Shown in pieces: positions 3,460 through 26,086 of a stretch of DNA of 64,000 nt (positions are counted from its first letter, which is position 1; the number at the start of each line of letters is the position of its first letter). The notes below the pieces were generated by a model. It was not told where the DNA came from, did not search any database, and saw only the letters and a program-made list of their open reading frames with translations. The stretch covers positions 123,754,001 through 123,818,000 of the forward strand of contig NW_024704742.1 of NCBI RefSeq assembly GCF_018977255.1. The letters are read 5' to 3'. Source of the DNA: Callorhinchus milii (lineage: Eukaryota). The translations under genes and the position numbers were made by a program.

Positions 3460-3482
3460 CCTAAAATCTATCCTCCCCTTTA

Positions 3483-4075
3483 GGGAAGTTATAGTAAACT
3501 TCTATAGAACCTCGGTTAGACCACACGTAGAATACTGTGTGAAGTTCTGGTCCCCACATTTTAGAAGGGACGTAGAGGCACTGGAGAAGGTGCAAAGGAG
3601 ATTCACAAGGATGATCCCAGAACTGAGAGGTTATACCTATCAGGAAAGGCTGAACATACTTGGACTCTTTTCTCTTGAAAAGAGCAGGGTAAGGGGTGAC
3701 TTGATAGAGGTCTTTAAAATGATGAAAGGTATTGATAAAGTAGACATAGGGAAGATGTTTTCACTTGTGGGGGAGACCAAATCCAGGGGCCATCAATATA
3801 AAATGGTCACAAATAGATCAAATAGGGAAGTTAGAAGAAATTTCTTCACACAGAGAGAATGTGAAACATGCTACCACAAGGAGTTGTTGAAGCAAATAGC
3901 AAAGATGTATTTAAGGGGAAGCTAGATAGGTACATGAGGGAGAAAGGAATAGAAGGTATGCTTGAAGGCTTAATTGAGAAACGGCAGGAGAAAGCTCATG
4001 TGGAGCATATACCAGCATAGACCAGTTGGGCCGAATGGCCTGTTTCTGTGCTGTATATTCTAATGTATTCAAATG
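3483..4075 (+). mobile_element. CR1 LINE 3' fragment
   Basis: ORF KFWSPHFRRDVEALEKVQRRFTRMIP...RGDLIEVFK; tail GGGCCGAATGGCCTGTTTCTGTGCTGTA. Confidence 0.9.
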
Positions 4076-5471
4076 TATTTGGACAATGTTGGAGTGTCCT
4101 ACAGTATTCCAACAAAAGACCTGTTGCAAATTAAAGAAATCTGTTTCTTTCCAACTACTTGCTGCAAGAAACTAAATGAGCAAATGCAGTAAGATGTAGA
4201 AACTTAGCAGCAGCAATGTACTTATAGCAACAGATGCATAGGAATGTTTGGAATCTGGATGGATCCCATTGTGCTGGGACATAGTGTAAATTGGTATCAA
4301 AGCTGGAATATAATCAGAAATACAAATCAGCATATAAGCAATACAGTCCAATACTATGTACATTTATAAAGCACCTTTCATGTTGGGAAAATACCTCAAA
4401 ATACTTGATACTGCTGTGGGAATGGGAGCCAAGCATTGTGGGAGGGGAGAGATGATCAAAAGCATGGTTAAAGAGATATGTTTAGAGACTGGCTTATTAC
4501 AAGGTTAGGGAGAGAGATAGTCAAAGTACTCTGGGATGGAGTTCCATAGCAAGGGCACACTGGGTGAACTTATCATCACAAATGGTGGATCAAAGAACTA
4601 GGAAGGGTTTGAAAAAAGGAACAGACAAGATCCTGCCAATTAAACAGATTCAGACCTGTTCAATTTAGAGATTGGATACATTGGGAAATTGAATTGGTAG
4701 TACAGTATATGTGGATTTGTTCTGTCTATATCTTTTACTTGATGGCATGTTCATTAGCACATAAATCTGCTCAGCATTCCATCAAAATATTGCTAAGCAC
4801 CAGCTATATCTAATTTATCAATGGTCTAATTTGGATACCAGAAAAATGAAGGCTTTATTTATGTTGTGTTGCGTTGTTCATCATGCAGCTGGCAAGAATT
4901 TCCTGGTATCTCTATCCACTTAGCAAGAGCTCTGCCAAAGAGCTAGCCAAATGTCTATGTCCAAATAGTTCTTATCTTCAGGGGAGGAGGAGGAAGCTAA
5001 ACGTGGCCTCTCGGGGGCTGAGTTGGTTCCAAGATTACGCTGCTGCCAAAGGAAGATCAGAATCAAGTTGATCCTTTCAAATACTTCCATGAGATCTTTA
5101 ATATCTACCCAAACAGGTAGACAAGAACTCAGTTTAATGTCTCGGCTGAATACTAGCACCTCTATCAATGCAGCACTCGCCCAGTACTGCATTGGATTAT
5201 CTTAAATTCAAAGTCCCAATTTAGAGTTTTAATCCATAACCTTCAGACTCCAAGGGAAAAGTGCTACCAAATTGAGCAAGGCTGAAATCTACCCAGCCAG
5301 GCTGAAATGCTTTTTAAAAATGGATTCTAGACTTTAAATATTTTCAATTTGCCTGTTCAGTGGTATCTGATACAAACTAAATTACAAGCCTAAGCAAAAA
5401 CTTTCAAAACTAATTACCTCAATTAATGTGATTTTATTTATTTTATATTTTAGCTGCACCATCCTGCTGGT

Positions 5472-7145: not shown

Positions 7146-7813
7146 CTCCTGTTTTTACCAACATTGCGTGCACTGCCTTACCAAGACGGGCATCCCCCCC
7201 ACCACCATTGCAGACAATGGTTTTACCAACATGGATCGTGCAGGGCCCATTGGGGTACCAGTGACCTTTTTTTTGTGCCTCCTAGACACTACTGTAATCC
7301 ACTTTAGCATCTCTAGATAAGGTGGGTGAAAAATCAGATAGTTCTCTCGATTCTGATCTAGGAACCCTGCAAGAAGGAATATCTCAACATTAGATCAGTA
7401 TGTGATAAAACTTGTCTATAATGTTTCCCATGATCAAAAAACATGTCAGAGTTGTATGAGGTATTTACATGTGCACTGCTTGCAAAAGGAAGCTGTTTAC
7501 CCTGAGATTCCTCTATGAGGTAATTTGCTTGTAAGAAATCACAAATGTCAAGTTACACTTAATGTTAAATGCCTTAAAAATGCTGAGCAATTCACTGAAC
7601 ATTGATGCAGTGTTTTGAATATTAAAAAAAAGGCTTTCAATGCATGTAATTGAGGGAGAAGTGAATAGGGAGTGTAAACTCTGGCATGGATTAGTTTAGT
7701 TCGATAGCCTGTTTGGCGCCTATTCAGTTTATGTAACTCTATACATTAACAAGTTCAACACTGATTAACAGGAAGTGTGCATCACCACATTGTGGGTGAA
7801 TCGACACTGAAAG

Positions 7814-10800
7814 ATGATGAGCCTTATTGATGAAAAGAGAACTGACCTTATACTGGACGCTGTGCTGCACAAAATCTTTGAAAATGAGGCACACTCCTTA
7901 CAAGAAAAGGACTGCGCTCAAAACATATTCCACAATGTTTCAGAAGAGGGAATGGTGGAACTGGCCTGTTATGAAAGAGTAACAGACAAGAATGCACATG
8001 AATTCAGCTGTATCATGAAGTATGAAGAACACAGCCCGGAAGAATTAAACAGTATGCTAAGGAAGGAACCTAAAACATACAAAAGTTGTCAATTATGGTT
8101 GAAATCACATGAGTGTGGAAAAGCTTGCCCTGTCGATGGAACAGTAGATGACATTGCAGTAAATGGCAGGATTAACTGTGGAACAGCTTTTCCTGGAGAG
8201 GAAGTTGTGGTGCGGATAACAAAAAAGCATGAGGATGATCTTTATGGTAAGGTCATTGGAGTCACAAAGCGAGAGATTGGAAAGCTTAAGAACATCATTT
8301 GTTACATTGACTCTGATGACTGTAATTTAATGATTCCAGTAAACATGCGATACAAAATTAAGATTCATAACCCAACCAAAAAGGACCAGCCTAAAAATTG
8401 TGTATGTGTCTGGGACGTAAATCTTTCAAATTCAACTCCAATAGTAAGATTTAAATATGTACAGACAAGGAGCACGGGAAACAATCTTTTTGTTGTTCAA
8501 TGCTTGAAATGGCTTCCACAATGTGATTATCCTCTGGGGATTGTCACAAGAGAGATACTGCCAGGAAATAGTAAACAAAATGGAATGAATATTTTACAAA
8601 TCCAGTATGAGTTAAACGGAAACATATTCTCTTGCACAGAATCCCTTCAGCAGCCTTCACAGAAAGGAAGAAAGGATTATACAAGGGATTGCGTTTTCAC
8701 AATTGATGATAAGGGTTCCAAAGACATCGATGATGCCATCAGTGTCCGTGAGCTAGATGGAAAATATGAAATAGGTATTCATATTGCTGATGTCTCAGCT
8801 TTTTTACAAAAAGATGGTGATGTTGACGTTGAAGCCAAGAATCGTGCAACCTCTTTCTATTCACCTTGCCATAAAGGTGAACCAATTCACATGCTGCCAA
8901 AAGAGCTCAGTGAGGTGCACTGCAGTTTACTGCCAGATTCAGTGAGATGTGCATTTGCAGTTCTGTTTTCTGTAGACAAAAGAAATTTCAAAATAGTTGA
9001 AAAGCCAACAATAGAAAGGACTGTGATCATTTCCAAACGTGCCTTTACATACAAAGAAGCTGCAGAGCTTCTTGCTCAGTCACCCAAGATACTGAATGCC
9101 ACCAGCTTCGAAGGATGTATGAATATCGTAGTCAGCTTTGCAGATCGTCTTAGAGAAGAACGTTTGAAAGAAGGTTGGCATCTAGTCAGTCTCTTTAATA
9201 CAATTCACGATGAACACAGACCACGTGGTATGATTGAGGAGCTTATGATTTTAGCCAACAGAACAGTGGCAGAAATATTGCTGAGAAATGAAACAACCAA
9301 AAATCTCACTCCACTTTGCATTCAACCAAAACCTAAATCTTCAAAGTTGTCTGCTTTCCAAAATGTTGTGAAGCCAATCTTACCAATATCTCCATATCTA
9401 AGATCCTGCATAGAGCATACCATGTCTGGCGGAAAACATCCTTTATGTAGCACCTCACTTAAAGAAGTATTTATTCTGGAACCTGTGTGGAGAAAGCTTA
9501 TTGAGTTCCAACAATGTCATCATTATGATAAAATGAAAACCCTGCTCTTTTGTGAAAAGCTCCACCCCCAGCTGGCAGCTGCCCAAGAGAGTGAGAAATT
9601 CTTTTGGAATACAGCCTACATGGTTCGTGCAGGATTAATCAGACCTGATACAAATCATCATTTCTCCTTAAGAGTCAATGCTTACACAAGGTTCACGTCA
9701 CCAATAAGACGGTATATGGATATTGTGGTACATCGTCTTTTGGAGTCAGTTGTGTTGAACAAGAGTGAAGCTCCTTATACTACTGAAGAGATTGATGATA
9801 TTTGCCGACATTTCAACCTCAAAACTGAGGACAGCAAAAAATATTCCTCACGGACAAAACAACTGGAAGAAGCAGAGGAACTGCAGAAAAATCCTAGACA
9901 GCAACTGGCTGTTCTTTTTAAAATACAGAAAGGAAAGTCAAGTCTGAGTGTTTTGTTTCCAGATCAACAATTTGAAAAAATGAATTCACTTCCACTAAAG
10001 CTTACCGTCTTGGGTTTAGATGAGCAAGCTCAATTTAAGGATGGTTCATTAACCTTGAAATGGCAGAGAAAGATTTTCTGCCCAAATAAGAGTGAAATAT
10101 TTCCTTCTGCTGATACTGTTATGGACACTACTGGGCACACTATTAGCGTACAAGCAAAAACGTGGATTGCATTGCAAAAAGCCATTTGCATTGGTGACCA
10201 CCAAACAGTCAGAGAACTTTTAGACAAAGAGAATTGTTCCCAAAAATGTTTGCGAAGTCACAAACTGGTATCAAAACAGCCTGAAAAGGACACAAATGAT
10301 TATCAATTGCTGTCAATGACAATAAAGAATGGCAGTGTGCTAAAAATGCAGAGAGCACCAAACTTGCATTGTGGCTTCCTGAAACCTAACATCCAGGTGG
10401 TTTACTTGAACAAGCAAGTAGACATTTGCATTGAACACGCTCGAGATCCAGAATTGTGCTTCACAAAGACTGATTGTGGTGAAGTCAAAGGTGCAAATTT
10501 CATCAACATAAAAGATTACATTGAGAGATGGATTCCAATTATTGAAATTGAGGCCGCTGTAAATTCTGTTATGCAAAATGACCCAATGGTGTTCCTCAAT
10601 GTGGAAACATATTGGGTTGAGGGTTCACCTTCATCTGGGAGCTTCAAGATTGACAGTAGCTACACTGACATAGACAAACTAGAGAAAGTAATAACAGCAG
10701 GTGATTTAGTTTGCATCCGACATTCATATGCAATGAACGAATCAAATCACAAATCCACATTACTGGTTGATATTAACCCTAATGAGACAACATGGGTTGC

Positions 10801-10950
10801 ACATTGCGTCATCACTGCTTCTGAAAAGATACCTCCTTACCTAGAAGTGACATTTCAATTACATCACTGTGCATCGGAAGCTCCTCCTCATGTATATGTA
10901 TCGAATCAGCCATCTACAATTGAGATCATGTCCCAAAGAATGGAAGACAG
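7814..10950 (+). CDS. helz2-like: Giant first coding exon (3137 nt) of the HELZ2-like gene, containing the cold-shock-like region and the RNB domain
   Basis: 1051-aa ORF in the track. Donor GACAG|GTATGT at 10950/10951. In-frame TGA at 7808-7810 precedes the ATG. Possible acceptor TTAACAG ending at 7771. Confidence 0.9.
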
Positions 10951-13900
10951 GTATGTATCAGATGATTAATTTTTAAATCAAATGATTTGCTCATTGATAA
11001 TGTACAAATGGATCATTTGATTGCCCCTTCGCACTGTCAGTTCTGCAGATACATTTCGCTAGATAGAGGTTCACTGCAGTGGTAGCCCTGTTCAAGTGAA
11101 TTAACTAACAAACAACAACCTGCAATTATATAGACCTTTCATATAGAGTACGTGTCAAAGCACTCCAGCGTCAGTGTCAGATAACCAGCAAGAAGAGTTG
11201 AGTTTAGCGCAGTCAAAGTTGAAGAGGCTTTCACGGGGAGCTTTTAAAAACAGATTGAGGCCAAGTTTGAGGGATTTAGCAATGGCGTTCCAGAGGGTAG
11301 AGATAGTAGTATTATAAAATGTAGAAAGTCTATTGAGGGTAGAGGGTATAGTGTTTGAAGACTCGGACACCGATGGTGGGGCAGAGTCAAGGAATATGTG
11401 ATAGACCAGAGTTTGTGGGCAAGTAAAGTTTAGTATTTTGAAACTTAAACAATGCTGTAATATCCTTGCAATCACTGAGTAATGGAAACTAAAGTCACTT
11501 TCCAAGTAAGGAAGAAAACACAATCACACAAATTATTTTGTCAAATTAATGCGAAAATAATGTAAACCTATTCTATCATTTATTAGAAGGAAAATTGAGG
11601 CTATCAAGTCACTAGAAAAAAATGAAAACCTGGCCAGACGCATTGCACTTGGAAAAGTTACACCAAACCTAGGTAAACAGCATATTACATTTTATGATTT
11701 TACTCATTTGTTTGTTTGTTTATTTATTTATTTATTTTGGTCAGCTGGGTGTCTGACACATGCAGAAACCCATCACATATTCAAGAGTATCCAAACCAAA
11801 CTGGGAGTTCCAAGCATCTCATCAATTTATGAGAATTCCAGAAATGTTTATTGGAATGGAATGCACACTCTCTCCCTGGAGGAACGTATCCTACTTACTG
11901 AATTCTGGAGAGGCACAGGTTGGCAGGAGCCAAAGCTTGGGGACCCCAGAGTGTGAGCTGGGATACTGCTGGGTTCTAACCAGAAAGTTTTCCATCGAGA
12001 GCATAGTCTGGCAAGCTTTCCAGCTGCTTGCCCAGCTAGAACCACCCTACCCCTTCCGGCTTTGGCTTTCAGGGTTAACATGAGCTGAATGGGAAGAGTC
12101 CTTGCCCACAGTGATTGGTTTGCCCTTCAAGTCCTGCTGATGAGCCAGACTGGCTGTGACATCAGCAGTGTCCTGGAGTGCACCCACATGGCTCAGGAAC
12201 TGGAATAGCGAGACTGCCACAGAAGATGGGCTCGGTTCTGACATTCTGTTGCCAAACTAATTGCTGTCGAAATGTCAATCGGTTTAAACTGTCCTTGAGA
12301 GTTTAAACAAAACTAAACAAAGTTTTTTCTGATAGAATGTTTTTTGAACTAACATACGTGCAAAATAATGTTCATAATAAGCTATAATGTGACAGATATT
12401 GAACAACCTACGGGACATCAAATAAATTCTTGTGAAAAAGGGTTACTGAAACTCAACAAAACCCAAAGCAATGCAGTGAGGACAGCTATGAATTCAGAAT
12501 TTACCGTGATTCAGGCACCGCCAGGTAAGACAAATTACTATATTTTTTTGTCTATCATGCAACAATCATTAAACACAATCATTAGGATGATTCCTTTCAT
12601 TTACAGTAGAATGTAGTGCATGACTGCAATGTCGGTGATTTTTTTTAGTTGTATGCATGCACCTGATATATTAAGGGTCATGATTTTAATGGAGCAGAAC
12701 TAAGAACCATCAGAGGTGGAGAGATAGATTCATTACAGACAAGTACATCATTAGAGAGGAATGCACACATACTACAGAAAGATAGAGAACCTGACACACA
12801 AATACGCACAACAACAACTTGCATTTATGTAGCACCCTCTACGCCGGGCGGCATCTCAGAATGCTTGACAATGGGGAAGGTCTTCAGGCGCGACCTGAAG
12901 ATGGGGAAGGAGGGGCGAGGTGAAGGGGCTGAGGGAGTTCCATATATTGAAGGGACCGGATGTGTTGGAGGAAGGATGTGTTGGAGGAAGGATAACTGGG
13001 GATCGAACCTGACCCCTGAGTTGTGCATGGGTTCAGAGAGTTTTAAGGACAGGTCGGGTAGGTTGAGAAGGTTGGAACCGTGGGACAGAAGATGTCGGCG
13101 AGAGCCAAAGGGTAAGGCTTCCGTCATGTTGACATTTAACTGCAGGAAATTTGCACTCGTCCAGCTCCTGATGTCCGACAGACAAGCTGACAGAACATCA
13201 GGAGACTAGGGGTCGCAGCTGGAGGTGGAAAAGTAGAGTTGAGTGTCATCCGGATACATGCAGAAGTTAATCCTGTGTCTATGGATGATATCACTGAGAG
13301 GGAGCATATAGATGAGGAAGAGAAGGGGGCCAAAGATGGATCCTTGGGGTACCCCGGAGGTGACCCGGTGGAAGCGTGAAGAAAAGCCACTTGCAGAAAT
13401 GTAGTGCTGATGGTCTGTAAGGTAGGACTCGAACCAAGCGAGTGTGGTCCCACTGAGGTGGATGATGGAGGACAGGCAGTGGAGAGGATGGCGTGATCAA
13501 CAATGTTGAACGTGGCGGAGAGGTCCGGGAGGATGAGGAGGCAGAGGGAGCCATTGTCACAGATAGAGAGGGTATTGTTTGTGACCTTCACGAGCACTGT
13601 CTCTGTACTGTGGGGAGGGCGGAAACCGGATTAGAAGGGTTCGAGTAGGGTGTCGAGGGAGAGGTGTGTGCGAAGTTGGTTGGCAACAACGCATTCCAGA
13701 GCTTTGGCAAGGAAGGGCCAGGTTTGACATAGGGTGGTAGTGGCTGAGGTTGGAGGGATCGAGGGTAGGTTTTTTAAGGAGGGGTTGATGACTGGGTTTT
13801 GAGGGATGGTGGGACTGATCCTGAGGAGACAGACTGGTTAATAGCGTCTGCCAGCAGTGGGCAGAGGAGGGGGAGCTGAGTTATCAGCAGTTGGGTGGGG

Positions 13901-16900
13901 AGACTTGGAGAGGCAGAGAAAGAGAGACAGACACACAAACACACACAGACCAAACAATTATCCCTACTGTTTTAGTATCTGCAACACCAATTGGTGCACA
14001 TATTGGGCTGTATTGAACTTTTCACAGGAATACCACAAATTAGTTGATACTTTTATTAGAGAAAATAAACACAGCTGTAATGTTCAGTTGAATTGTGTTA
14101 TTTTTATACAAGTGAAAAGCTTGCTTTTTAATGTAATGCAGTTTTCATGAAAAGTTATTTGGCTTTTTTTTATTTTGGGAAGAAGAGCATCATTTTGTTT
14201 ACATTGTCTTTGCTTTTGTAGTTAGTCTGTTTTTCTACTGCTATCCACTTTTTTGAGGATAGCCTGGCTCAGTTGTTAGCACTCTTGTTTCTGAGTCAAT
14301 ATCAATTCTTTGTGAAACATACAGCAAACCATCTCAGAGACATAGCAAGATTATGAGGCAGTTTAGCATCATGTTATGTAGATAAAAGTTACTTTTTAGT
14401 TTTTTTTCATCGTTTATTTGATCCCTATTTAAGAAATGTGCATTTTTAATTTAACAGGAACAGGGAAAAACACAGCTGGAGCCTATATCATTTTGAATTA
14501 TTTGAAACGCAACAAGCCATGTGGGATTCAATTAACTCAATCCAAACAAGTATTGAAATGTTCTCGACAGATCCTTTACTGCGGGCCATCAAACAAATCT
14601 GTTGATGTTATGGCAGGTGAAATATGAAAGTAATATCTTGTTTGAATGAGCATTATTTTTCTGAAACATGGGTATAACTGGATTAACATTTTGTATTTAC
14701 TTACCATTTAGAGCAACTACTGGAAGCAAAGTGTGATTTGTCCATACTCCGAGTTTATGATGAACGGATTGAACAACTCGCATTCCCATTGGAAGATGTG
14801 TTGATATCCAAAGAAGCAAACAGCAATGCTTACATCAAAGAGAACTTAAAGTAACTTAAGTAATGTACATTGAGTAATCCAAACCATTGACTATTCAACA
14901 GATATTAAAAATCAATAATATTAACCCATCATTATTTCTATTGTTACATAATATAATTTTTTCTAGTCAGCTGGGTGTCACACAGAAATCCGTCATGCTG
15001 CTTAAGAGTATCCAAATCAGACTGAGAGTTTTAAGGGATAATATTTAATAGCATTATTGTGATTGTGATGGAGCTATATATTATGGTTAATGGAACTCTG
15101 CTCCCATTATAAGCATGCATTACTAAGTCTGATAAATTTCCTAAAAGAGGAAAATTCACCCCTTATAAATGCAACACTGAACACCCATTCACTATAATAC
15201 CTAGATAAAACATTCAAAATAATCATGTTTGTGTTTCTTGATAGCAGCAGCAAATTGTTTTCTTTACATATTTTATAGTCTCTTACTATTAATATAACAA
15301 TGTCATAATGAAGGAAAATATGGGACTTTTTTGTTCCCTGCAGAATTACAATGCAGAGAGAAAATATATATCCAGTTACAACAAAATGAAACACGATACA
15401 CTTCAGTAATTTAAAATGCCCTGCCATGCTGACATTGTCCATTTCCCTGTGTATTTTAGCAAGCATCTTCTATGTTAATAATAAACTAAACTAAAATAAA
15501 GGTGATCAACTTTTTAAATGTTAAATTGGCTTATTAAATGTCCAGTTATGTTGTTGTCAATATTACACTGCGCCAATGGAGTACTCCTTTAATAAATAAC
15601 GTTGTTGTGCTTTACAGATGCATTGCCTTGCACTTCAAGATCCGGCAGTCCAGAACAGACTCAGCAGAACAAATAAATCAGCTTTATCAACAATTGAAAA
15701 AGAATGATTATACCAGTCCTGAAGAGAGAAAAGTAGCATACATGAAGTAAGTTAAAAGTTATTTTATTTTAGTCCACATTGTTGATTTCCCATCTCTAGA
15801 TACTAACCATGCATTAATTTCTTAAATCGGGCTCTGCCATACAGTTGGTTTATGGATATTTGCTTGTGCTGAGGGAACAACAAAGCCAGTTATGTCTCTG
15901 ATTGTCTCTGCGATATCTTGAAGTTGGTTCATATGATATGATTCATATCTCAACCTCTTACTACCAACATGAATAACTATAAGTGCCATATGACACACAA
16001 TATCATATGTTACTGAACTTGTACATTCCGTTTCTGTTAAAGAAAGATCCCACCTCCGTCAGCAATTTGTAGCAGCCAAACATACTGACATATGCAAGAA
16101 TCTCATTGTGTATATCTGTAAGCACCTTGTAACTTGAATTGCATTGTGTAAATTTTATTACTTCTCAAGTCAAGAACTAGTTAATAAAAAAATAAGTTAA
16201 AATCGCTTTGCATTCCATAGCAGGACATAGTAGTATAGTTAGCTATTATTACTTCAATTAAAAATGCCAATTTGGAAATCGTAAACTCTGAGGAAACCTC
16301 AGAAACCTTGTTAAATCCTAACTGTGGTGAATACCTATACAATACAAAATGATATTTGTATAGCACCTTTCAGATTAGGTGGATATTATTATTATTATTA
16401 CATCCATGCTCGACTATGCTAATGCCCTGCTTGTTGGCCTTCCCAACTCTTCCCTTCATAAGCTGCAGATCATCCAGAACTCTGTAGCTTATGTCTTCTC
16501 CCCCACCAGGCTCCTTGACCCCAATGCACCCACCCTCGCTCCACCGACGGCCTGAGGGGTAAGGTAGTGGTGAAGTCGGGCAATGTTGTGGAGTTGGGGG
16601 AAGGCAGAGCAGGTCATGGCATGGATGTGGGGTAGAAAGGACGGTTGAGGGTCGAACAAGACAACTAGGTTCCTGACTGGCTTGTTGAGGTGGAGTGTGC
16701 ATCCATGGATGCTGATGTGGCCAGTTCCTGAGGTGCAGAGGCGCTGGCGTGAGCCAATCAAGAGACCCTCGGTCTTGCTGACATTCAACTCTAGAAAGTT
16801 GGCTCTCATCCAGGACTTGATGTCTGACAGGCAGTAGGTCAAGATATTAGTGGCCCTGGAGTCGAGGGTAGAGGCAGAGAGATAGAGTTGGGTGCCATCC

Positions 16901-19900
16901 GTGTACATGTGAAAGTTGACTCCACGTCTGCGGACGATGTCACCAAGAGGGAGCATGTACAGGTTGAAGAGGAGAGGACCGAGGACAGAGCCCTGAGGAA
17001 CACCACACAAGATGGTGTGGGGGCTGGAGTAGAAGCTGTTCATGTTGACAAAGTCGAGCTGGTGTGAGAGATAGGATTTGAACCATTGAAAGACAGAACT
17101 TGGAAGGTTGAGGTGAGAGGAGAGGCAGTGGAGGAGGATAGAGTGGTCCACAGTGTCGAAGGCAGCAGAGAGATCAAGGAGGATGAGGAGAGAGAGGGAG
17201 CCTTGGTCACAGATGGACAGAATATCATTTGTTACCTTGACCAGGGTTGTTTCCGTGCTGTGAGCAGCACATAAACCCGATTGGAGGTGTTCGTAAAGGG
17301 AGTGGCAGGAGAGGAAGGAGTGAAGCTGGGAGGAACAACATCTTTCAAGGACCTTGGAAAGGAAAGTGAGGTTGGAGATGAGGCGGTAGTTTGTGAGCAG
17401 GGATGGGTGCAGGGAAGTTTTTTTTTAGGATAGGGGTGTTTGGGTAGGGAAGGGGTTGCACTGAATATCTGGCTTCATGGAACACATATTTTGTCAATCT
17501 AGAGATAATCTTTTCTTTGGTCTCTGCCAAGTATAATCCAATAATATAACTAAACAGCATTAAAAGCATTCTCCTTTATGAAAAATCAACAGATTCCTGC
17601 ATGCACAAAAATATAGTGTAAGGATAATTAACCTTTAGACTATCACATGCACACATAGACATTGTTAAAATAAACAAGCTTTTGACTACTTGCTACATTC
17701 CCGTTGCAATTAGACATTGAACCAATTAAAATAATCCTAATAATTTTTACCTTTAGTATGGCATCTTATCACACTGAGAGCACATATCAAAGCGCTTCAG
17801 AATGTACTGTGAAATGGAGTGACTGTGTATTTGTAGACAACAGCACAATTGTGTGCAACAATGTCCCACAAACAGCCATTAAACAAATCATCAATTTTAT
17901 TTGGGGGATTGTTGGCCAGGACACAGGGAGAAACTCCCTTCACTTTTTCAATTATGCCATGGGATCTTTAAATCCACCTGGAAAGGCAGATGGGACCCTG
18001 GTTTAATGTCACCTACAAAGGATCTCCGACGCAATGCAACACACCCCACAGCACTGCATTAGATTTTCAGCTTAGACTATGAGTTCAAGACCCGATGAGG
18101 GACTTGAACCCACAACCTTTTGACACTGAGTCAAGCTGACACACAGACTCATTACACCTGAAATTCACAAACAAATTTGATGGAAATAAAAATCACGATG
18201 CAGGAACCCGAAAGGTAAGAAATGCTCCTAAAGCATAAACTATCGGACGAGATTGTGAATTGACATTTGTATCTGCCGCTGAAGATTTCCTTCTAGGTTA
18301 TTTCTTGGTCAAGAAAAGGCCTGAAAAATGATCAGGAAACGAATCTGCTTTTGTTGGCCTTTGGGACTATAACTTTTTTTCAGGTACAGATCGAATTGTG
18401 CAATTTCAGACAGAAATTGCAATTAGTATCGTACTGACTTTCAGTTAGCAAATGCTGTAGTTTAAATACAATACATTTTTCTGAAACTGATCATTTAGAT
18501 AATTTCAAGTGAACGAAAAAGACCAAGGGCCTAAACTGTGGTTCTATACAATTTAAAACAGAGAGTAATAAGGCATTTGTGTAAAGTCCTGCACTGTACA
18601 ATCTTTTTCTGATGTCACAACAACAACAACAAGATTCCATTTATTGAGCGCCTTTCACGTCGGGAGGACGTCCCAAATGTCCATTTGAATTTAAGAAATA
18701 ATTTATCAAATTTTGATCTCAAGTTAACGATTCCATAGGAAGGATTATAATAAGAGGCATGGGGAAAGGGCATGAAAATGGTACTGAAAAGATTGCTTGT
18801 AAAGGAGCCGACACGGACGCAATGAGCCAAATGGTGTTCTTCAGTGCTGTAAATGTTCAGGTTTTATATCTGAAAAATACTATCAGGCTATGTTAATAAC
18901 CCTGGCAATTTTTAGGATTGGTTCATTTAAGGTTTTTATGTAGCCTATTGAAGTACAAATGTTAAGGTTTGATTTGTTTGCTTACAGATACAATCAGCTT
19001 GTCCACGAAGCACAAGTGAACGAAATCAAAAATCACAATATTATCTTATGCACATGCACAACTGCTGCCAGACCATTAATAAAAGAGAATACAAACTTCT
19101 TTCAGTGCATTGTGGATGACAGCGAGGCATGTACAGAGCCAGAGTGTTTGATTCCTATAGTATCCTCAAATGCAAAGCAGGTGTGTACCCCAATAAGCCT
19201 CAATTACATCAAATTTAAAGACCCAAATTCCACCTATTCTAAGCTACAAGTCCATTTTGTCTTAGCCATTCCTCTATCCGTGTTGCTACCTTTTCATTTA
19301 TTCCATGTGTTGTAATTATGTTAAGATGGCTGTGCATCATGAACTGGTTGGTTGTTTTCACGTTATTGATGTCAGAACACTTAAAAGAAAAGTTGTGGGT
19401 AATTGGATTATCAGTTTTGTCACTGAGTCACACACCAGGAAGATCCTAACTGCAACTCTTGGTATGCACAAGTTACTATATTACAGCAGGGGAGTTAGTC
19501 TTTCACAATTAGCTTCAGTATTCCAGGACTAGGGAGAGATTTCTTTCCAAATTTGTTGTTTTAACCACAATACAATGATTTCTAACGAGGCTGGGCAAGT
19601 ACTTTTCTTAGTACATTTTCCTAGAAATACACAACCACAATACTCTGTGAAGGTCTTTCAGACAGCTAGACTATACCAACCTCAAGAGAGGAAGGTTAAG
19701 AAAAGATAATTGAAGAGAGAAGAAATGTATAATGCGCTGCATTTCAGATGAGTTGCATGGCCTCCCAAAAGGAAGGGCCACTGTTAGCATATTTTCTGGA
19801 CAACTGTTGGAATAATGATTATGCATATGTCTAAATGCAGTCACATATCACAAAGGATGGCTATTTACTGTTTTTTTTAATATTCTGAGACTTGATGCAT

Positions 19901-22900
19901 ATATCTTTCATCTTAAATTTTCTACTTTAGAATGTGTCTTACTCAATATTTTAATCATCAGAATTATTAAGACTATTCATATGTTTATTACAAATTTTAT
20001 AGAAGAGCTAAAATTAATATTTTTATGATCAAAGTATAACTTGATAGTTCAGTACCTTGGGACGTCCTCCCGACTTAAAAGACTCCATATGAATGCAATT
20101 TGTTGTAGTTGTGGATAGATTGAATTTAAATTAAGATACATGAAACACGAGAATTTTGTTTTATTGGTTATTTAGTGCAAACATTTTGGGTGATGACATG
20201 ATACTTATGGTTCATTTTACCTGCATTTGGCTCACTGTTTTATTGTAGGTTGTTTTAATTGGGGATCACAAGCAATCGAGACCAGATGTGAAAAGTGAAC
20301 TGGCTAAAAATCTTGGTCTAGGAATGTCAATATTTGAGCGATATGTTTCGGATGCACTGATGCTTAATGTTCAATATCAAATGGTATGTAAAGGATTTAC
20401 TTTTACAATGATAATATTGAGATATCTACATAAAATATCTAATGTCTACTTAAAAACTCACAACAGTAAATATTATGAACAGAAATGCTCTATGGCCATA
20501 AGTAAAATCAGAATGATTCAACAAATTTTATTAAAATTCTGACCTACACATTCTTTGGATTAAGTATTGTGAATAATTTATTCCAAATCTTCAAAACTGC
20601 AGTACAAAGTAAAATCAGATACTGTAATAAAGGTTGTAAAAATATTAGACATACTGAATAAACAGTGTTATTGTACCTTATATTGAAATGTCTCCCAAAG
20701 TCCTCCTGATGCGAAAGGTGCTTTACAAATGTAATTTGTCGCTGTTGTTGTTGTCTCAATGGACTTCACACAGTGAATTATTTTAAGTATAGTGCAGGAA
20801 AAATACTGCAGAAATAACAAGATGAATATTCAATTGATTTTGTGGTCAGTAATTTTGGATGAGTGAAATATTGCCCACTGCATTGAAATTAATTGGGAGC
20901 TTATTATAATGATTGAGCTAACTTTGACAAAGCGCTGACGTGTGTTATATTTCTGGTCATTTGAAAATAAAAAAAAATGGGTAAAAATATCTGTGGAGAT
21001 CTTTAAACAGTATGCTATCTAATAAGTGCAATGATAATAATGAATCATTTATTTGTAGCACCCAGAAATCTGCACCTTTCTATCTGAAGAATTTTATCAT
21101 GGAAAACTTAAGACAGCTGAGTTAGACAAATGGAAACCTGCTCCACGAAAAGACCCACTTGGGAAGGACTGTCTAATTATGTTTCATCAGGCTGAACATT
21201 CTTGTGTAACATTTGAAGAAGGAAACAGAGCATCATGGAGTAACAGTGCAGAAGGAGCAAATGCTGTAAGAGGAGTTAACTCATGAGATTTCTATTAGTA
21301 TTATACAGTGGAAGCTGGACACATTGAGGATGGTTGTTTTGTCCGGCTTAATAGGCGTCCAAGGTTAACCGAAATACCATTCCCGCCCAGCAGAGAAGTG
21401 GCAAAGGCACCGTATAATAAAATGTACCAATGTTGTTTTATTTGCAGCGATATTAACTAACCAAATAGGACACAAAAGTATTTTAACCTAGGAGTTAAAG
21501 TTAAAATACTCTCACAGAATTCAGTAAAATATATTAAGCTTTGTTTACCTGCAAAATACTTTCCTACCCAGCACAAGAACAAGGGTAGAGTTGCCTTACG
21601 GCTCTGAGGTGAATGACAGCCTTGGAGCCGCTTGTGAATGGATGGGATCCACCCATTCACCAGCGGCTCCAGTTTGTGAATGGATGGAGTCAATTGGTAT
21701 TTGACTCCTCCCATTCCCTCCCCTCGTTTTTCCATGTTCCTCTGCCCCTTTACTGATTGACAGCCCAACTCCAGCTGCTTGTGAATGGCTGGAGTCTGCC
21801 GTCAGTCTCAATGTGACTCTTCCCATCTGTATCCCGGAGTTGCTCGTGGCTGAATGGAGCTGCTCGAGACACAGAAGGCCCAAGTGAGAATATACAGTGG
21901 TGTACCAGTGCAGTATGCTGCCTGGATTAACCAGATTTGTGTCCAAATTAACAAAGACATTTAAATCAGGTAAAAATACAAAATGAATCAGGATCGAGTG
22001 TTTTATCTGATTTACCCTTTAAATTTACCATTAAACATTAAATTATTAAAAATGAATTTATAAAAAAAATTAAACTTTAAACTCAATCCATGACTGTTTG
22101 TGGGACACTGCTGTGCACAATAGGCTGCCACACAAATATATACAGTCAATTCACTTTACAGTATATTCTGTGAAGTGCTTTGAGAAGTTTAGAAGATGTG
22201 AAGAGTGCTATATCAAATGCAAGGATTATTATTATTATTACTCTGTCTCCGGGGTTAACCGGAATCCAGCAAAATTCCACTGTATTTTGTTATTCTGTTT
22301 GTATCAAATGTAGATCTCAGTTGAAACATGAGCTGTGTTTCTTACAGTGCTCATCTTCACTTCCCATGGGGTGAAATGGTTCTTACGTCCACCCCCCCTT
22401 TTTTTTACCCTGTTACCGTACTCTGATTCTTCTCCTCCTTCAGATCCTTCTCCTCATTTAAACACTCTAACTAATTTTCCCATCCCTCTCATTTCTTACC
22501 CCCCCCACCCTGGCTTTAAAACTCATCTTATGGCATTTCTTTGATTGCACCTCTGTCAATTCCCGTGGTTCTCTTTCCAAGCTCAGGTTTCCATTATTTA
22601 AAGTGCTTTGAGGCATTCTCCCTACATATAAGGTGCTAAAAAGTCAAATTGTTGTTGTATGAGAGCATGTCAATTGTAGAGAGGACAATGAATTGTGAAA
22701 AAGAGAATAATTTTAAAATGTTGTATTTTCCTTAAGGTTAAATGGGCATTGGATCTCATTCATAAAGGCGTAAAGGAGAGAGATATTGGCATTATTACAC
22801 CCTACCAAGCCCAAGTTAGAAAGCTCAAACAAATCTTGAAGAAGAATAAGCTTAATAATATAAAAGTTTTGCCAATTCTCCACAGCAAAGGTAAGTATGA

Positions 22901-23801
22901 ATGATGAAATTAAAGTATAACGAAGAAAATGCTGTTTTTCTCTTCGTATTTGGTGATAAAGCAACAGTCTTTACACTTCTGATTAATGTTAATGATACTC
23001 TCTAAACCATTATATTTTTTATTCTGTTTCACTGAGGTTAAATACATAGGAACTAAGTTAATATATCTCTCCTTTCAACCGTGATGATTGAGTCTTTATT
23101 AATAATGTTACTCTTCCTCTTTTGCTCTTTTCCCATCCCCTCCCACATCAGGTAGGTTCTACACAATCAGCGCTCCCTCCATTACAGGCTAGTGAGTTTG
23201 ACATCTGTTTAGGGAAACATTGGAAGGTATTCTGGAGGAGAGAATAATGAAGAGTCTAGAGAACGTATAGAAATATAAGAAGTCAGGATAACTTTATACC
23301 CAGGGAGTATTCCATTCTAACAATCTATCTCTGGGATTTCCCATGTGTAGGTGGATTGCATGGAAATCAGTTTGGTTTAGATACCCTGCTGATGGATGGG
23401 TTTCCACATGCGTCAGACACCCGGCTGACAAAAAAATCATAACTTTATGGAAGAGAGACCATGTAAAACAATTCTATTGTAGCTCTTTGAAGAGATAATG
23501 GGATCTCCTGTAGCTCAGTGGTTAGAGCACTCGCTTTGCAAGTGAGAGACCCGAGTTCAATTCCAGGCAGGGCGAAACCTTGGGCAAGTTTCCTTACTCC
23601 ACACGCCTAATAATAATCCCTCCAAAACCAAAACAATAATAAATTGGTCATTTTCAATCTACGACTGTTTGTGGGACATTGCTGTGCGCAATTGGCTGCC
23701 GCGTTCGCCCACAAATATACAGTCAATTCACTTTACAGTGTGTTCTGTGAAGCGCTTTGGGACGTCCTCCCGACGTGAAAAGCGCTATATCAAATGCAAG
23801 G

Positions 23802-23833
<32 letters not shown>

Positions 23834-26086
23834 GCTAAACTAATCCCTTCTGAACAAACTGAAAATATCTGTTAGCATCGGGAAATCTCTTACTTAAACT
23901 TTTTAGACACTATTAGCCTGAACTTCCCCTTTTTACCAACTCTGTAATAATCAAAGCCCATAGGATTTTGGGCTTATCTTGTCACTCCCAAAAAAAACAT
24001 ATATGTGCTGCCCCCCGAGATGCACACACAGAATAATCAGACTAGTTGCCAATCTAGTACTGTATTAAAATCAGGTGGCCTTTTGAAAATAGAAACTGAT
24101 GGATTGAATGTTCATAATCGGTTTTGAATTGTACCAATCATAAGAGTTTTAATTAGATTAATTCACCCAGTGGTCATTTTTTGTGGTGTGAAAGAGAGTG
24201 GTTATGGTCTGGAATGCACTGCCTGAAAAGGGCGGTGGAAACATATCAACTATCAAAACTATCAAAAGGGAATTGGATAGGTACTTGAAGAGGAAAAATT
24301 TGCAATGATATGGGATAGAAAAGGGCAGTGGGACTGATTAGGTAGCTCTTCCAAAGAGCTGGCACAGGCACGATGGACCGAATGGCCTCCTTCTGTATTG
24401 TAATATATGATTCTGTGATTTTATTATCTAAATCCACAATTCAATCTTTCTCTCTATACAAACTTAACTATGCAGTGAAGCACCCTTTCCTGTTCCAACT
24501 TTCATCCCTCTGCTTTTGTCCCATTCCATGATTCTGTGACATTGGATATGTCACTGATTGTACCTGGGCCCAATAAATAAAGCACAGAAATAGGGTGACA
24601 AACGTATCTCATTTGAAGTTATTTTGAGTTTGAATGTTTATATAATGCTGTTAGTCAGATGCCTGCTTTATTTAGAATATGTAACGTTCATATTACATAG
24701 ATTAATCAATTTCCAATGAGTTCAATCAATTTTCAAATGCAGCTGTTGGAGTTTAAATTAACTTATTGTTATTATTGTTACAGGCTATAAATGGGACTAC
24801 GTTATATTGTCAACGGTCCGGTCACTTCCTTTTTCAGAAATAGAAAACAGACCAAGCAAATCATGGTTACAAAACAATCTTGGTAGTTTAACAGACTCAT
24901 ACCAACTCAATGCTGTTCTTACAAAAGCAAAGAACGGCCTGTGTATAATAGGTAAGAAAGTAATCTTACTTTTGATTGTGCTTACGGTCACCTCCCTCCT
25001 CCCTTGACTCGTTGTCAGACTCCGCCACTGTGAAGCGCTCCGGTACGCTAGCCGGTGTGAAGGGCACTATATAAATGCAAGTTGTTATCACAAGAACCGT
25101 ATAAATGGATAGGCCAGGTGATTTAATCCTTCCAGAGTATCTACCCTACTGCCTTCCAGTTTTGCAATAAATCTGTTTCTTGAATTAACTGAGTGTCCTT
25201 ACCACTATAATCCTTCTTACTAGCCTAATCTATTTTATGTAGGATATCCCATGAAGAAGTAAAAGGCAATTAGGAAAGAGCCAATGAAATAAAGACAAAT
25301 ACAAAAGGACACTGGAATTGGGACAAATTGGAGTGTTCTGAGTTGAGAATACAAAGAAATTTACTAACACCTGAGTTTTGATAGAGAATTATTACAATTT
25401 CTCCTTCATGATAGAAAATACTTCCTATTGTAGATCTTGAAATTGACCTTCACAGCCCCTAAGCCTGTGCTGCCTGGCCTGCTGCCTTGGTATATATGAA
25501 AGAAAGCTTGTGAGTTCAAACCCCACATTGGGAATTTGAACTCGTAGCTTAGTTGACACTCCAATGTAATGTTGGGGGAGCATTGCATGGTCTGAGGAGC
25601 CATCGTTTGGATGAGACATTAAGGCTAAGTTCCTGTCTGCCTGCTCAGATGCACATTGAAGAACCCATGTCCTCACGTGGGGCTTGAATCCACTTTTTAA
25701 GTTACTAAAATATTACTTCCTGTTGTATTTTTTTCACTTCCTATGAACTGGTGTCTGACCTCTATTTGATAAGTGTCTACAGTGTCATGATTAAAGTTAG
25801 ATGTGCAGTGTTTGGAAATCACAGGTGAAAATGTTGTTTAGGATTGTGGCAAGAAATTAGCAACACTGATCCGGGCACCCAAAGTTGAGATGATTTAGAA
25901 GACAGCCACAACTACAAATATGTAATTACTTTATATTGTATTTATTCAGGCAACCAGAATTTACTGAGGTGCCATCCTCAGTGGAAGAGACTTCTGGAAT
26001 ATTATGAAACAAGGATTTTGTCTGCAAAACTAAAAAGGCAATACTTTCAATTGCCTGTGCACTTTAACAGAACAAAATTTGTCTGA
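7814..26086 (+). CDS. helz2-like: HELZ2-like protein: RNB (RNase II family) 3'-5' exoribonuclease plus one degenerate UPF1-like SF1B helicase domain; 12 coding exons, about 1590 aa
   Basis: Hand-built join, all GT-AG and phase-compatible: 7814-10950, 11587-11672, 12396-12524, 14458-14616, 14712-14850, 15618-15746, 18988-19180, 20249-20383, 21059-21265, 22737-22890, 24784-24951, 25950-26086 (4773 nt, ends TGA). RNB motifs: FTIDDKGSKDIDDAISV, IGIHIADVS, IEELMILAN, YTRFTSPIRRYMD. SF1B motifs: LNKTQSNAV, QAPPGTGKN, CGPSNKSVD, ILCTC, GDHKQ, TPYQAQV, WDYVILSTVRS, GLCIIGNQNLL. RNB followed by a UPF1-like helicase is the HELZ2 architecture. Confidence 0.88.
11739..12260 (+). repeat. Unclassified interspersed repeat
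   Basis: Start GTCAGCTGGGTGTCTGACACATGCAGAAACCCATC recurs at about 14965, 37150 and 49015 (+) and 23400-23430 (-). The segment GAGCTGAATGGGAAGAGTCCTTGC recurs at about 32742. Confidence 0.65.
12808..13900 (-). mobile_element. Decayed L2 LINE (RT fragment plus tail) in HELZ2-like intron 3
   Basis: Minus-strand peptides LVKVTNN...LLILPDLSATFNIVDH and FDPQLSF; L2 tail at about 12808-12865. Confidence 0.85.
16400..17430 (-). mobile_element. Decayed L2 LINE RT fragment in HELZ2-like intron 6
   Basis: Minus-strand ORF with [21 protein letters not shown]...FHMYTDGTQLY. Confidence 0.9.
21306..22282. mobile_element. Tigger/pogo-like non-autonomous DNA transposon with a SINE fragment inserted at about 22080-22240
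   Basis: Termini TA|CAGTGGAA and TTCCACTG|TA. A homologous copy starts at 50632. Confidence 0.65.
23500..23833 (+). mobile_element. tRNA-derived SINE with an L2-like 3' tail and (TTA)n end
   Basis: A box TAGCTCAGTGG, B box GTTCAATTCC, Deu-type core TGTTTGTGGGACATTGCTGTGCGCAATTGGCTGC, tail GCGCTTTGGGACGTCCTCCCGACGTGAAAAGCGC. Confidence 0.9.
24170..24420 (+). mobile_element. CR1 3' fragment
   Basis: TGGAATGCACTGCCTGAAAAGGGCGGTGG...GGACCGAATGGCCTCCTTCTG tail. Confidence 0.7.

Follow-up and report, generated by a model that had tools for sequence, protein, structure and literature searches.

A HELZ2-like tandem duplicate in Callorhinchus milii that joins an RNB nuclease core to a candidate UPF1-like pseudohelicase

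HELZ2 and described pseudohelicases

HELZ2 (PRIC285/PDIP1) is an interferon-induced RNB exoribonuclease with two UPF1-like helicases (PMC10516660, PMC9839780). In the human protein each helicase is active, with the stronger ATPase activity in helicase 2 (PMC10516660); helicase 2 is also the domain most needed for restricting LINE-1 (long interspersed element 1), and it is unclear which domain recognises the target RNA (PMC9839780). Human HELZ2 digests single strands without ATP, passes duplexes only with ATP and active helicases and, when helicase action is missing on a duplex that carries a 16-base tail, halts about five bases into that tail (PMC10516660). The present analysis concerns a HELZ2-like gene, here called gene C, in a stretch of 64,000 nucleotides (nt) of the Callorhinchus milii genome (RefSeq assembly GCF_018977255.1, contig NW_024704742.1, positions 123,754,001 to 123,818,000 of the forward strand; hereafter the window, with positions counted from its first letter). 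Its protein is already annotated as HELZ2-like in RefSeq, and a sequence-only reading of the locus had proposed that its helicase is a pseudo-ATPase. Gene C resembles HELZ2 in the order of its OB_HELZ2, RNB and UPF1-like domains and in its four catalytic Asp residues; it differs in having neither the zinc-finger region nor helicase 1, in five ATP-site changes in helicase 2, and in belonging to a separate paralog lineage together with its neighbor, gene B.

Described pseudohelicases are few and mostly ancient. They include the C-terminal cassette of Brr2 and RecC/AddB, and domains of the RecC/AddB type also serve nuclease machines. Utp25, which is derived from a DEAD-box protein, has kept the helicase fold, lost catalysis and been retained by selection (PMC9539457), as appears to be the case for gene C. 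In contrast to these ancient and widespread proteins, gene C is UPF1-like, young and known from one species. The helicase domain of vertebrate Dicer, an antiviral nuclease, offers a further parallel, having lost ATP use in a lineage with other active helicases (PMC10159624); however, its ATPase motifs are well conserved and its inactivity is disputed (PMC11658451), whereas in gene C the motifs themselves are altered. The best sequence and fold matches of gene C are UPF1-like superfamily 1B (SF1B) helicases, of which engineered ATPase-dead UPF1 mutants stay clamped on nucleic acid (bioRxiv 2022.07.08.499162). Unlike in those mutants, the loss in gene C is natural, affects several sites, is fused to a nuclease and extends to one RNA contact. 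In searches of the open-licence literature, no UPF1-like pseudohelicase fused to a nuclease was found (the pseudohelicase query gave only Utp25), nor any report linking HELZ2 with Callorhinchus, with a pseudoenzyme or with a duplicated inactive helicase domain.

A partial tandem duplicate of a full-length paralog

The C. milii genome contains three HELZ2-type large exons, those of genes A, B and C, which have a common exon layout. Gene A (on C18) is full length, groups with shark HELZ2 and is the ortholog of jawed-vertebrate HELZ2, an orthology that apparently does not extend to gene C. Gene B (G000:C1:123,722,264-123,744,624) is also full length, lies on the same strand as gene C and ends 17 kilobases (kb) upstream of it; its motifs are canonical in both helicases, those of helicase 2 reading GPPGTGKT, IVDESG, QYRM, SQGCEW and NVAITRA. 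Gene C is a partial copy of gene B, made by tandem duplication of its 3' part: it matches that gene exon for exon from just after helicase 1, its large exon starts just past the point matching the end of helicase 1, and no helicase-1 or N-terminal (zinc-finger region) exons occur between the end of gene B and position 7814. Because an in-frame TGA lies ahead of the ATG at 7814, no upstream coding exon can read into the large exon, and the truncation is real for any transcript that uses the acceptor at 7772.

The gene comprises 12 exons (7814-26086, plus strand) with AG/GT splice ends, which join in frame to encode 1590 residues with no internal stop and one terminal stop. The spliced translation equals XP_042187754.1 (P0121), the RefSeq HELZ2-like protein of C. 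milii, letter for letter, and the last 545 residues of an older, independent protein record (P0001) are identical to it. Pfam places OB_HELZ2 (PF25049) at residues 72-154, RNB (PF00773) at 286-647 and a single UPF1-type AAA_11/AAA_12 pair (PF13086/PF13087) at 1093-1548, which is the architecture of the HELZ2 family. The sequence-only reading had described a gene at 12396-26086 with eleven small exons spliced in frame. The in-frame splicing without stops stands, but the true start is the ATG at 7814, only ten small exons fall within that span (the eleventh is at 11587-11672), and the 3137-nt exon that holds the RNB domain had been missed.

From 46 prepared rows, subsets of 28 (LG+G4) and 16 (LG+C20 mixture) were selected, and a tree was built from each by a quick search. 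In both trees, B and C are sisters with support 100, and the pair branches between the HELZ2 sequences of invertebrates and those of jawed vertebrates, outside every HELZ2 sampled from the latter. A single clade of A, B and C was rejected (approximately unbiased test, p 2e-46), although the B+C stem is long, so that attraction to the invertebrate root is possible. By descent, gene C is a member of the HELZ2 family, but it is not a canonical HELZ2. Gene B possibly represents a second HELZ2 lineage of vertebrates, of ancient origin, that has been lost or not annotated elsewhere. Gene B is only about 35% identical to any other HELZ2 among the matches listed. Orthologs of B and C were sought in three word-indexed searches (best 120 each, length-limited) and one full HMMER scan (best 150); among the matches listed, none outside C. 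milii exceeded 35% identity over the large exon or from RNB to the end, or 43% over the helicase region. The shark matches placed in the trees group with gene A, and no other chimaera is named among the matches listed.

The ATP site of the helicase domain

Eight side chains were taken to define the ATP site in UPF1 numbering (K498, T499, D636, E637, Q665, R703, E833 and R865; PMC9914065, PMC6888360). Alignment of gene C to UPF1 shows that five of the eight are altered, the equivalents of T499, E637, R703, E833 and R865 being Asn, Asp, Gln, Lys and Lys, respectively; the equivalents of K498, D636 and Q665 are retained, as is that of Y702. With five of eight residues changed, gene C does not have the intact ATP site of an active UPF1-like SF1B helicase. 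The deviating motifs reported earlier are all present, namely APPGTGKN (12515-14471), VDDSE (19112-19126), QYQM (20372-20383), SKGYKWD (22884-24797) and NAVLTKAK (24909-24932), and LNKTQ, PSNKSVD, LCTC, GDHKQ and TPYQAQ, described as retained, are likewise found in the spliced model.

These residues were compared with those of fetched proteins that carry RNB followed by helicase 2, a set gathered by similarity and rich in birds and teleosts. All eight ATP columns are covered in 267 of the 274 proteins, or 265 once the two records of gene C itself are removed. Four positions never vary among these 265, namely the Glu of Walker B, the Arg of IIIa, the Gln of motif V and the Arg of motif VI; the motif V Glu is conserved in 264/265, and the Walker A position holds Thr or Ser in 264/265. 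At the Walker B Glu, IIIa Arg and motif VI Arg, gene C has Asp, Gln and Lys, changes seen in 0/265 others; both motif V residues are Lys, and the Walker A Thr is Asn. Counted by protein, 262 of the 267 have no ATP-column change, two have one, one has three, and two are gene C itself. The substitutions are therefore not standard in helicase 2 of HELZ2, and the pseudo-ATPase appearance noted in the sequence-only reading is borne out. An Amphiura HELZ2-like protein (P0010) carries three ATP-column changes (K>S, T>M, E>D), and P0481, one of the seven partly covered proteins left out of the count, has two deviant helicase-2 positions; both could be convergent dead-helicase cases or poor gene models.

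Sequencing error is unlikely, since the older record P0001 carries the same residues and a contig of run X4 matches exon 20249-20383, including the QYQM codons, with 0 differences. In UPF1, ATP binding and hydrolysis are both lost on substitution R703A or R865A, and the E637A mutant has a strongly defective ATPase (PMC9914065, PMC6888360). Judging from the five ATP-site changes, ATP hydrolysis by the gene C protein is very probably lost or badly impaired.

Selection on helicase 2

Helicase 2 of B and C differs by a synonymous divergence (dS) of 0.60 and a nonsynonymous divergence (dN) of 0.25, a pairwise ratio of 0.41 (bootstrap 0.31-0.54), and the helicase exons are 74% identical with no identical run longer than 28 nt. 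Near-invariant columns were defined as those at least 95% conserved in 261 homologs (two were dropped for short coverage) in which gene B keeps the consensus. Gene C is changed at 5/8 ATP-site, 2/10 ATP-adjacent and 7/91 other such columns. The loss is thus concentrated on ATP residues, as had been claimed, with 5/8 changed against 9/101 of all other near-invariant columns (Fisher p 0.0008, a value inflated by the way the locus was chosen), and thresholds of 98% (4/7 vs 4/58) and 90% (5/8 vs 12/117) agree. If 0.2-0.4 substitutions per site are placed on the gene C branch, a neutral codon model predicts 2.7-4.3 changed ATP-site, 3.6-5.7 ATP-adjacent and 31-50 other columns (about 41 in the middle of the range), compared with 5, 2 and 7 observed, and 8-24 stop codons, of which none is seen. 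Under a late uniform release of constraint, at least 5/8 ATP-site changes would arise at p 0.0014. At non-ATP invariant sites, dN/dS on the gene C branch is about 0.12 (near 0.1-0.2); both this and the pairwise ratio are below the value near 1 that the earlier reading had tied to a recent pseudogene. The analysis assumes equal synonymous rates on the B and C branches and lets gene B stand in for the ancestor. Statistically, if B and C share their synonymous divergence about equally, the ATP site has drifted about as if neutral and the rest of the domain has been under purifying selection.

Among polar non-ATP invariants 33/34 are unchanged, 15 of these with synonymous differences, and among non-polar ones 6/57 are changed. 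Polarised changes gave no significant gene C-specific acceleration of helicase 2 when the large exon served as reference (51:21 vs 28:18, p 0.32). Motif Ia is identical to that of gene B; Ib, TEPE, IV and the LGSLTD segment have also been retained. Of the presumed RNA-contact motifs, Ia, Ib and IV are kept and motif V has Thr>Pro; an nsp13 preprint supports a contact role for Ia, IV and V. An AlphaFold model from a 20-row alignment is compatible with a two-RecA, UPF1-like fold (predicted local distance difference test score 80.4, predicted template modelling score 0.75), and the top Foldseek matches are UPF1 (E about 1e-30, template modelling score up to 0.77). The earlier proposal that fold and RNA surface are kept holds for the fold and for motifs Ia, Ib and IV, but had overlooked the motif V Thr>Pro change and a 4-residue deletion in RecA2, so that the RNA surface is only partly conserved. 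Gene C combines a kept fold with catalytic motifs lost under continuing selection, as is characteristic of pseudohelicases.

Nuclease core and gene conversion

The RNase II/RNB signature, four catalytic Asp plus TSPIRR, is present in gene C, and the RNase II domain put forward by the sequence-only reading is intact. Gene C matches the consensus at 88/99 conserved large-exon columns and gene B at 90/99. From motif correspondence, the Ser and Arg of FTSPIRRY are presumably S1920 and R1923 of human HELZ2. Their loss abolishes the RNase activity of the human protein (PMC10516660). The nuclease of gene C is predicted to be a 3'-5' exoribonuclease of RNB type. Two tracts of near-zero dS (Table 1) lie within flanks that reach dS 0.3-0.7 between B and C, which indicates recent gene conversion confined to the large exon. 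This conversion holds the nuclease core of gene C nearly identical to that of gene B. The two genes form a natural matched pair, with a near-identical nuclease core, two intact motors in B and a single, apparently dead one in C; the contribution of the helicase-2 fold apart from ATP hydrolysis is thereby directly testable.

A possible ATP-independent nuclease and its alternatives

The leading explanation, about as likely as not, is that gene C encodes an ATP-independent, single-strand-limited 3'-5' exonuclease with a passive grip on RNA. The dead helicase domain would hold single-stranded substrate for the RNB nuclease without ATP, a suggestion made because human HELZ2 digests single strands without ATP and dead UPF1 stays bound. 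Like human HELZ2 with dead helicases, the gene C enzyme would be expected to attack or trim 3' ends that lack structure and to come to a halt a few bases short of a duplex; it would probably trim loose RNA ends and be unable to unwind folded RNA. Genes A and B would perform ATP-driven degradation of structured RNA, and gene conversion keeps the nuclease core of gene C matched to that of gene B. We infer the inactive helicase, the RNA grip and the substrate range, and any immune role would be of the same standing. More tentatively, the locus may hold an active RNase to which a naturally occurring UPF1-like pseudohelicase is joined, an innate-immune HELZ2 duplicate that abandoned ATP-driven unwinding and turned into an ATP-independent clamp-and-trim enzyme or into a brake on its active neighbor, within an ancient second vertebrate HELZ2 lineage so far seen only in a chimaera and with conversion matching the nuclease cores. 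Gene C would then be a pseudoenzyme caught early, with its parent next door, a conclusion whose reach is that of sequence data from one species.

Several observations weigh against the passive-grip nuclease. The locus was chosen for its odd ATP motifs, and the R703A and R865A data concern Ala, whereas gene C carries Gln and Lys. The fold model was built on an alignment of active helicases and demonstrates only that the sequence is compatible with the fold. Erosion has gone further in RecA2 than in RecA1 (5/45 vs 2/46 invariants changed; pairwise dN/dS 0.52 vs 0.34), and the motif V Thr, which we take to be an RNA-backbone contact, has become Pro where 264/265 others have Thr or Ser. Many polar invariants are structural, so their retention is no proof of RNA binding. 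Since the near identity of the RNB core stems from gene conversion, it offers weak support for selection on the gene C nuclease, which alone carries an Arg>Cys change (Table 1). Finally, no second-species ortholog appears among the matches listed, so persistence of the dead state rests on one species.

Because gene C is a truncated tandem copy whose parent next to it is intact and looks active, loss through redundancy, with retention of the fold only, is a serious rival. The ATPase would have been lost because the intact paralogs A and B made it redundant, and the domain, itself functionless, would be kept open and folded since stops trigger nonsense-mediated decay and misfolding destabilises the nuclease. 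This fits the five ATP-site changes, which agree with neutral expectation, and it would explain the motif V Thr>Pro change, the deletion and the faster RecA2 as erosion past the ATP site. However, selection for the fold alone should partly release polar non-ATP invariants, including motif Ia, and these are held at least as well as non-polar ones (1/34 vs 6/57 changed); furthermore, about 0.3 synonymous substitutions per site have accumulated with the domain still untruncated, and a mere passenger is considered rather unlikely. It is quite improbable that the dead helicase serves as a regulator or decoy, binding RNAs or partners that A and B also bind and so damping or redirecting those two, or baiting viral antagonists: the surface motifs are retained, ATPase-dead UPF1 locks on RNA (bioRxiv 2022.07.08.499162), helicase 2 is the domain human HELZ2 most needs against LINE-1 (PMC9839780) and the active parent is adjacent, but there is no partner evidence and no clear interferon element for gene C.

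A nucleotide-gated switch, in which the domain binds nucleotide without turnover or with slow turnover, would account for retention of the Q-motif Gln, the IIIa Tyr (adenine pocket), the PPGTGK of the P-loop, the Walker B Asp and the motif III Gln, and for ATP-adjacent columns changing less often than the neutral model expects, with 2/10 changed against 3.6-4.8 expected. Several of the substitutions are conservative or place an extra Lys close to the phosphates, and UPF1 E833K bound an ATP analogue well, in simulation only (PMC6888360). Nevertheless, the ATP-adjacent retention is not significant (p 0.07-0.24), the Gly and Pro concerned are structural, and R703A and R865A abolish ATP binding in UPF1 (PMC9914065, PMC6888360), which makes such a switch very improbable. 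Scarcely credible, and already largely refuted, is a recent pseudogene, a uniform late relaxation or an assembly artefact. The 5' end is truncated, the promoter was not located and transcription is only hinted at, but the frame is open, uniform relaxation fits poorly with the ATP-site count, the helicase residues are the same in two protein records and in run contigs, and the divergence of the helicase exons from gene B speaks against a mis-assembled copy.

Transcription and promoter evidence

Four of 13 sequencing runs were aligned to the window; their RNA status is a guess, no run being recorded as RNA, and contig depth cannot rank the genes. A contig of run X1 aligns from exactly the acceptor at 7772 with no mismatch and has 92 further letters outside the alignment. 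A contig of run X4 (201 letters) aligns over exactly exon 20249-20383 with 0 mismatches, and its ends lie outside the alignment. These contigs, from two studies, fit spliced gene C transcripts and give a hint of transcription. No exon-exon joints were displayed in the read alignments of the four runs, which were swamped by repeats. Upstream scans did not locate the first exon and promoter of gene C, which could use the 5' exon of gene B. Elements resembling the interferon-stimulated response element (ISRE), together with a plausible short first exon and splice donor, occur upstream of B (G000:C1:123,718,770-123,718,950) and A (C18:11,389,100-11,389,420), which suggests that A and B may be interferon-inducible. 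For gene C, motif scans gave no clear interferon element; one weak ISRE-like site (strict match) lies 12 kb upstream, and 13/300 shuffles give one.

Feature coordinates and surroundings of the locus

Table 1. Features of gene C in the window.
Feature	Positions	Strand	Remarks
5' untranslated part of large exon	7772..7813	+	acceptor AG 7770-7771; in-frame TGA before ATG
Large coding exon, residues 1-1046, 3137 nt	7814..10950	+	OB_HELZ2 fold 8027-8275, RNB 8669-9754, post-RNB region
RNB catalytic motif FTIDDKGSKDIDDA, four Asp (298, 304, 306, 307)	8696..8737	+	identical in gene B
Gene-conversion tract, RNB core, residues 286-540	8669..9433	+	dS 0.03 vs B; 388-nt identical run
Arg>Cys, residue 502, gene C only	9317..9319	+	Arg or Lys in 79/79 others
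RNB motif FTSPIRRY	9692..9715	+	Ser and Arg kept; identical in gene B
Second gene-conversion tract, residues 861-960	10394..10693	+	dS 0.016 vs B
Coding exon 2, linker	11587..11672	+	spliced model
Exon 3	12396..12524	+	Q-motif Gln 12464-12466 kept; motif I start, Gly>Ala 12515-12517
Exon 4	14458..14616	+	Walker A Lys 14466-14468 kept; Thr>Asn 14469-14471; motif Ia GPSNKSVD as in gene B
Exon 5	14712..14850	+	RVY arginine kept
Exon 6	15618..15746	+	helical insertion
Exon 7	18988..19180	+	motif Ib LCTC kept; Walker B Asp kept; catalytic Glu>Asp 19118-19120
Exon 8	20249..20383	+	motif III Gln kept; motif IIIa Tyr kept, Arg>Gln 20378-20380
Exon 9	21059..21265	+	RecA2 start; Pro>Leu; 4-residue deletion; least confident part of gene model
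Exon 10	22737..22890	+	motif IV TPYQAQ kept; motif V Thr>Pro 22872-22874, Gln>Lys 22887-22889
Exon 11	24784..24951	+	motif V Glu>Lys 24789-24791; motif VI Arg>Lys 24924-24926
Last exon with stop codon	25950..26086	+	spliced model

A UniRef model (P0124) runs through exon 2 into the intron (11587-11959) and then meets a stop, predicting an RNB-only protein. No AATAAA occurs on the plus strand from the gene C stop to 27138. Genes B and C are flanked by an MTR4/MTREX gene on the minus strand (L012:7852-8211 (-)) and a DHX29 gene on the plus strand (window position about 29900 onward), each with its own CpG island, the two islands about 75 kb apart; in human, MTREX and DHX29 are presumably head-to-head neighbors. 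An inverted segment of 1.1 kb at 3482-4568 is common to the 5' intron of gene B (G000:C1:123,720,415-123,721,490). Its non-LINE half is 95% identical and has no other close copy among 40 scored matches, which suggests a possible recent local exchange. Between B and C, a near-perfect tandem repeat (G000:C1:123,748,223-123,751,522; 1420 nt at 99.7%) marks a recent duplication or an assembly artefact. The introns and positions 38000-63000 of the window contain numerous broken LINE-type reverse-transcriptase fragments and high-copy short repeats of an ordinary kind.

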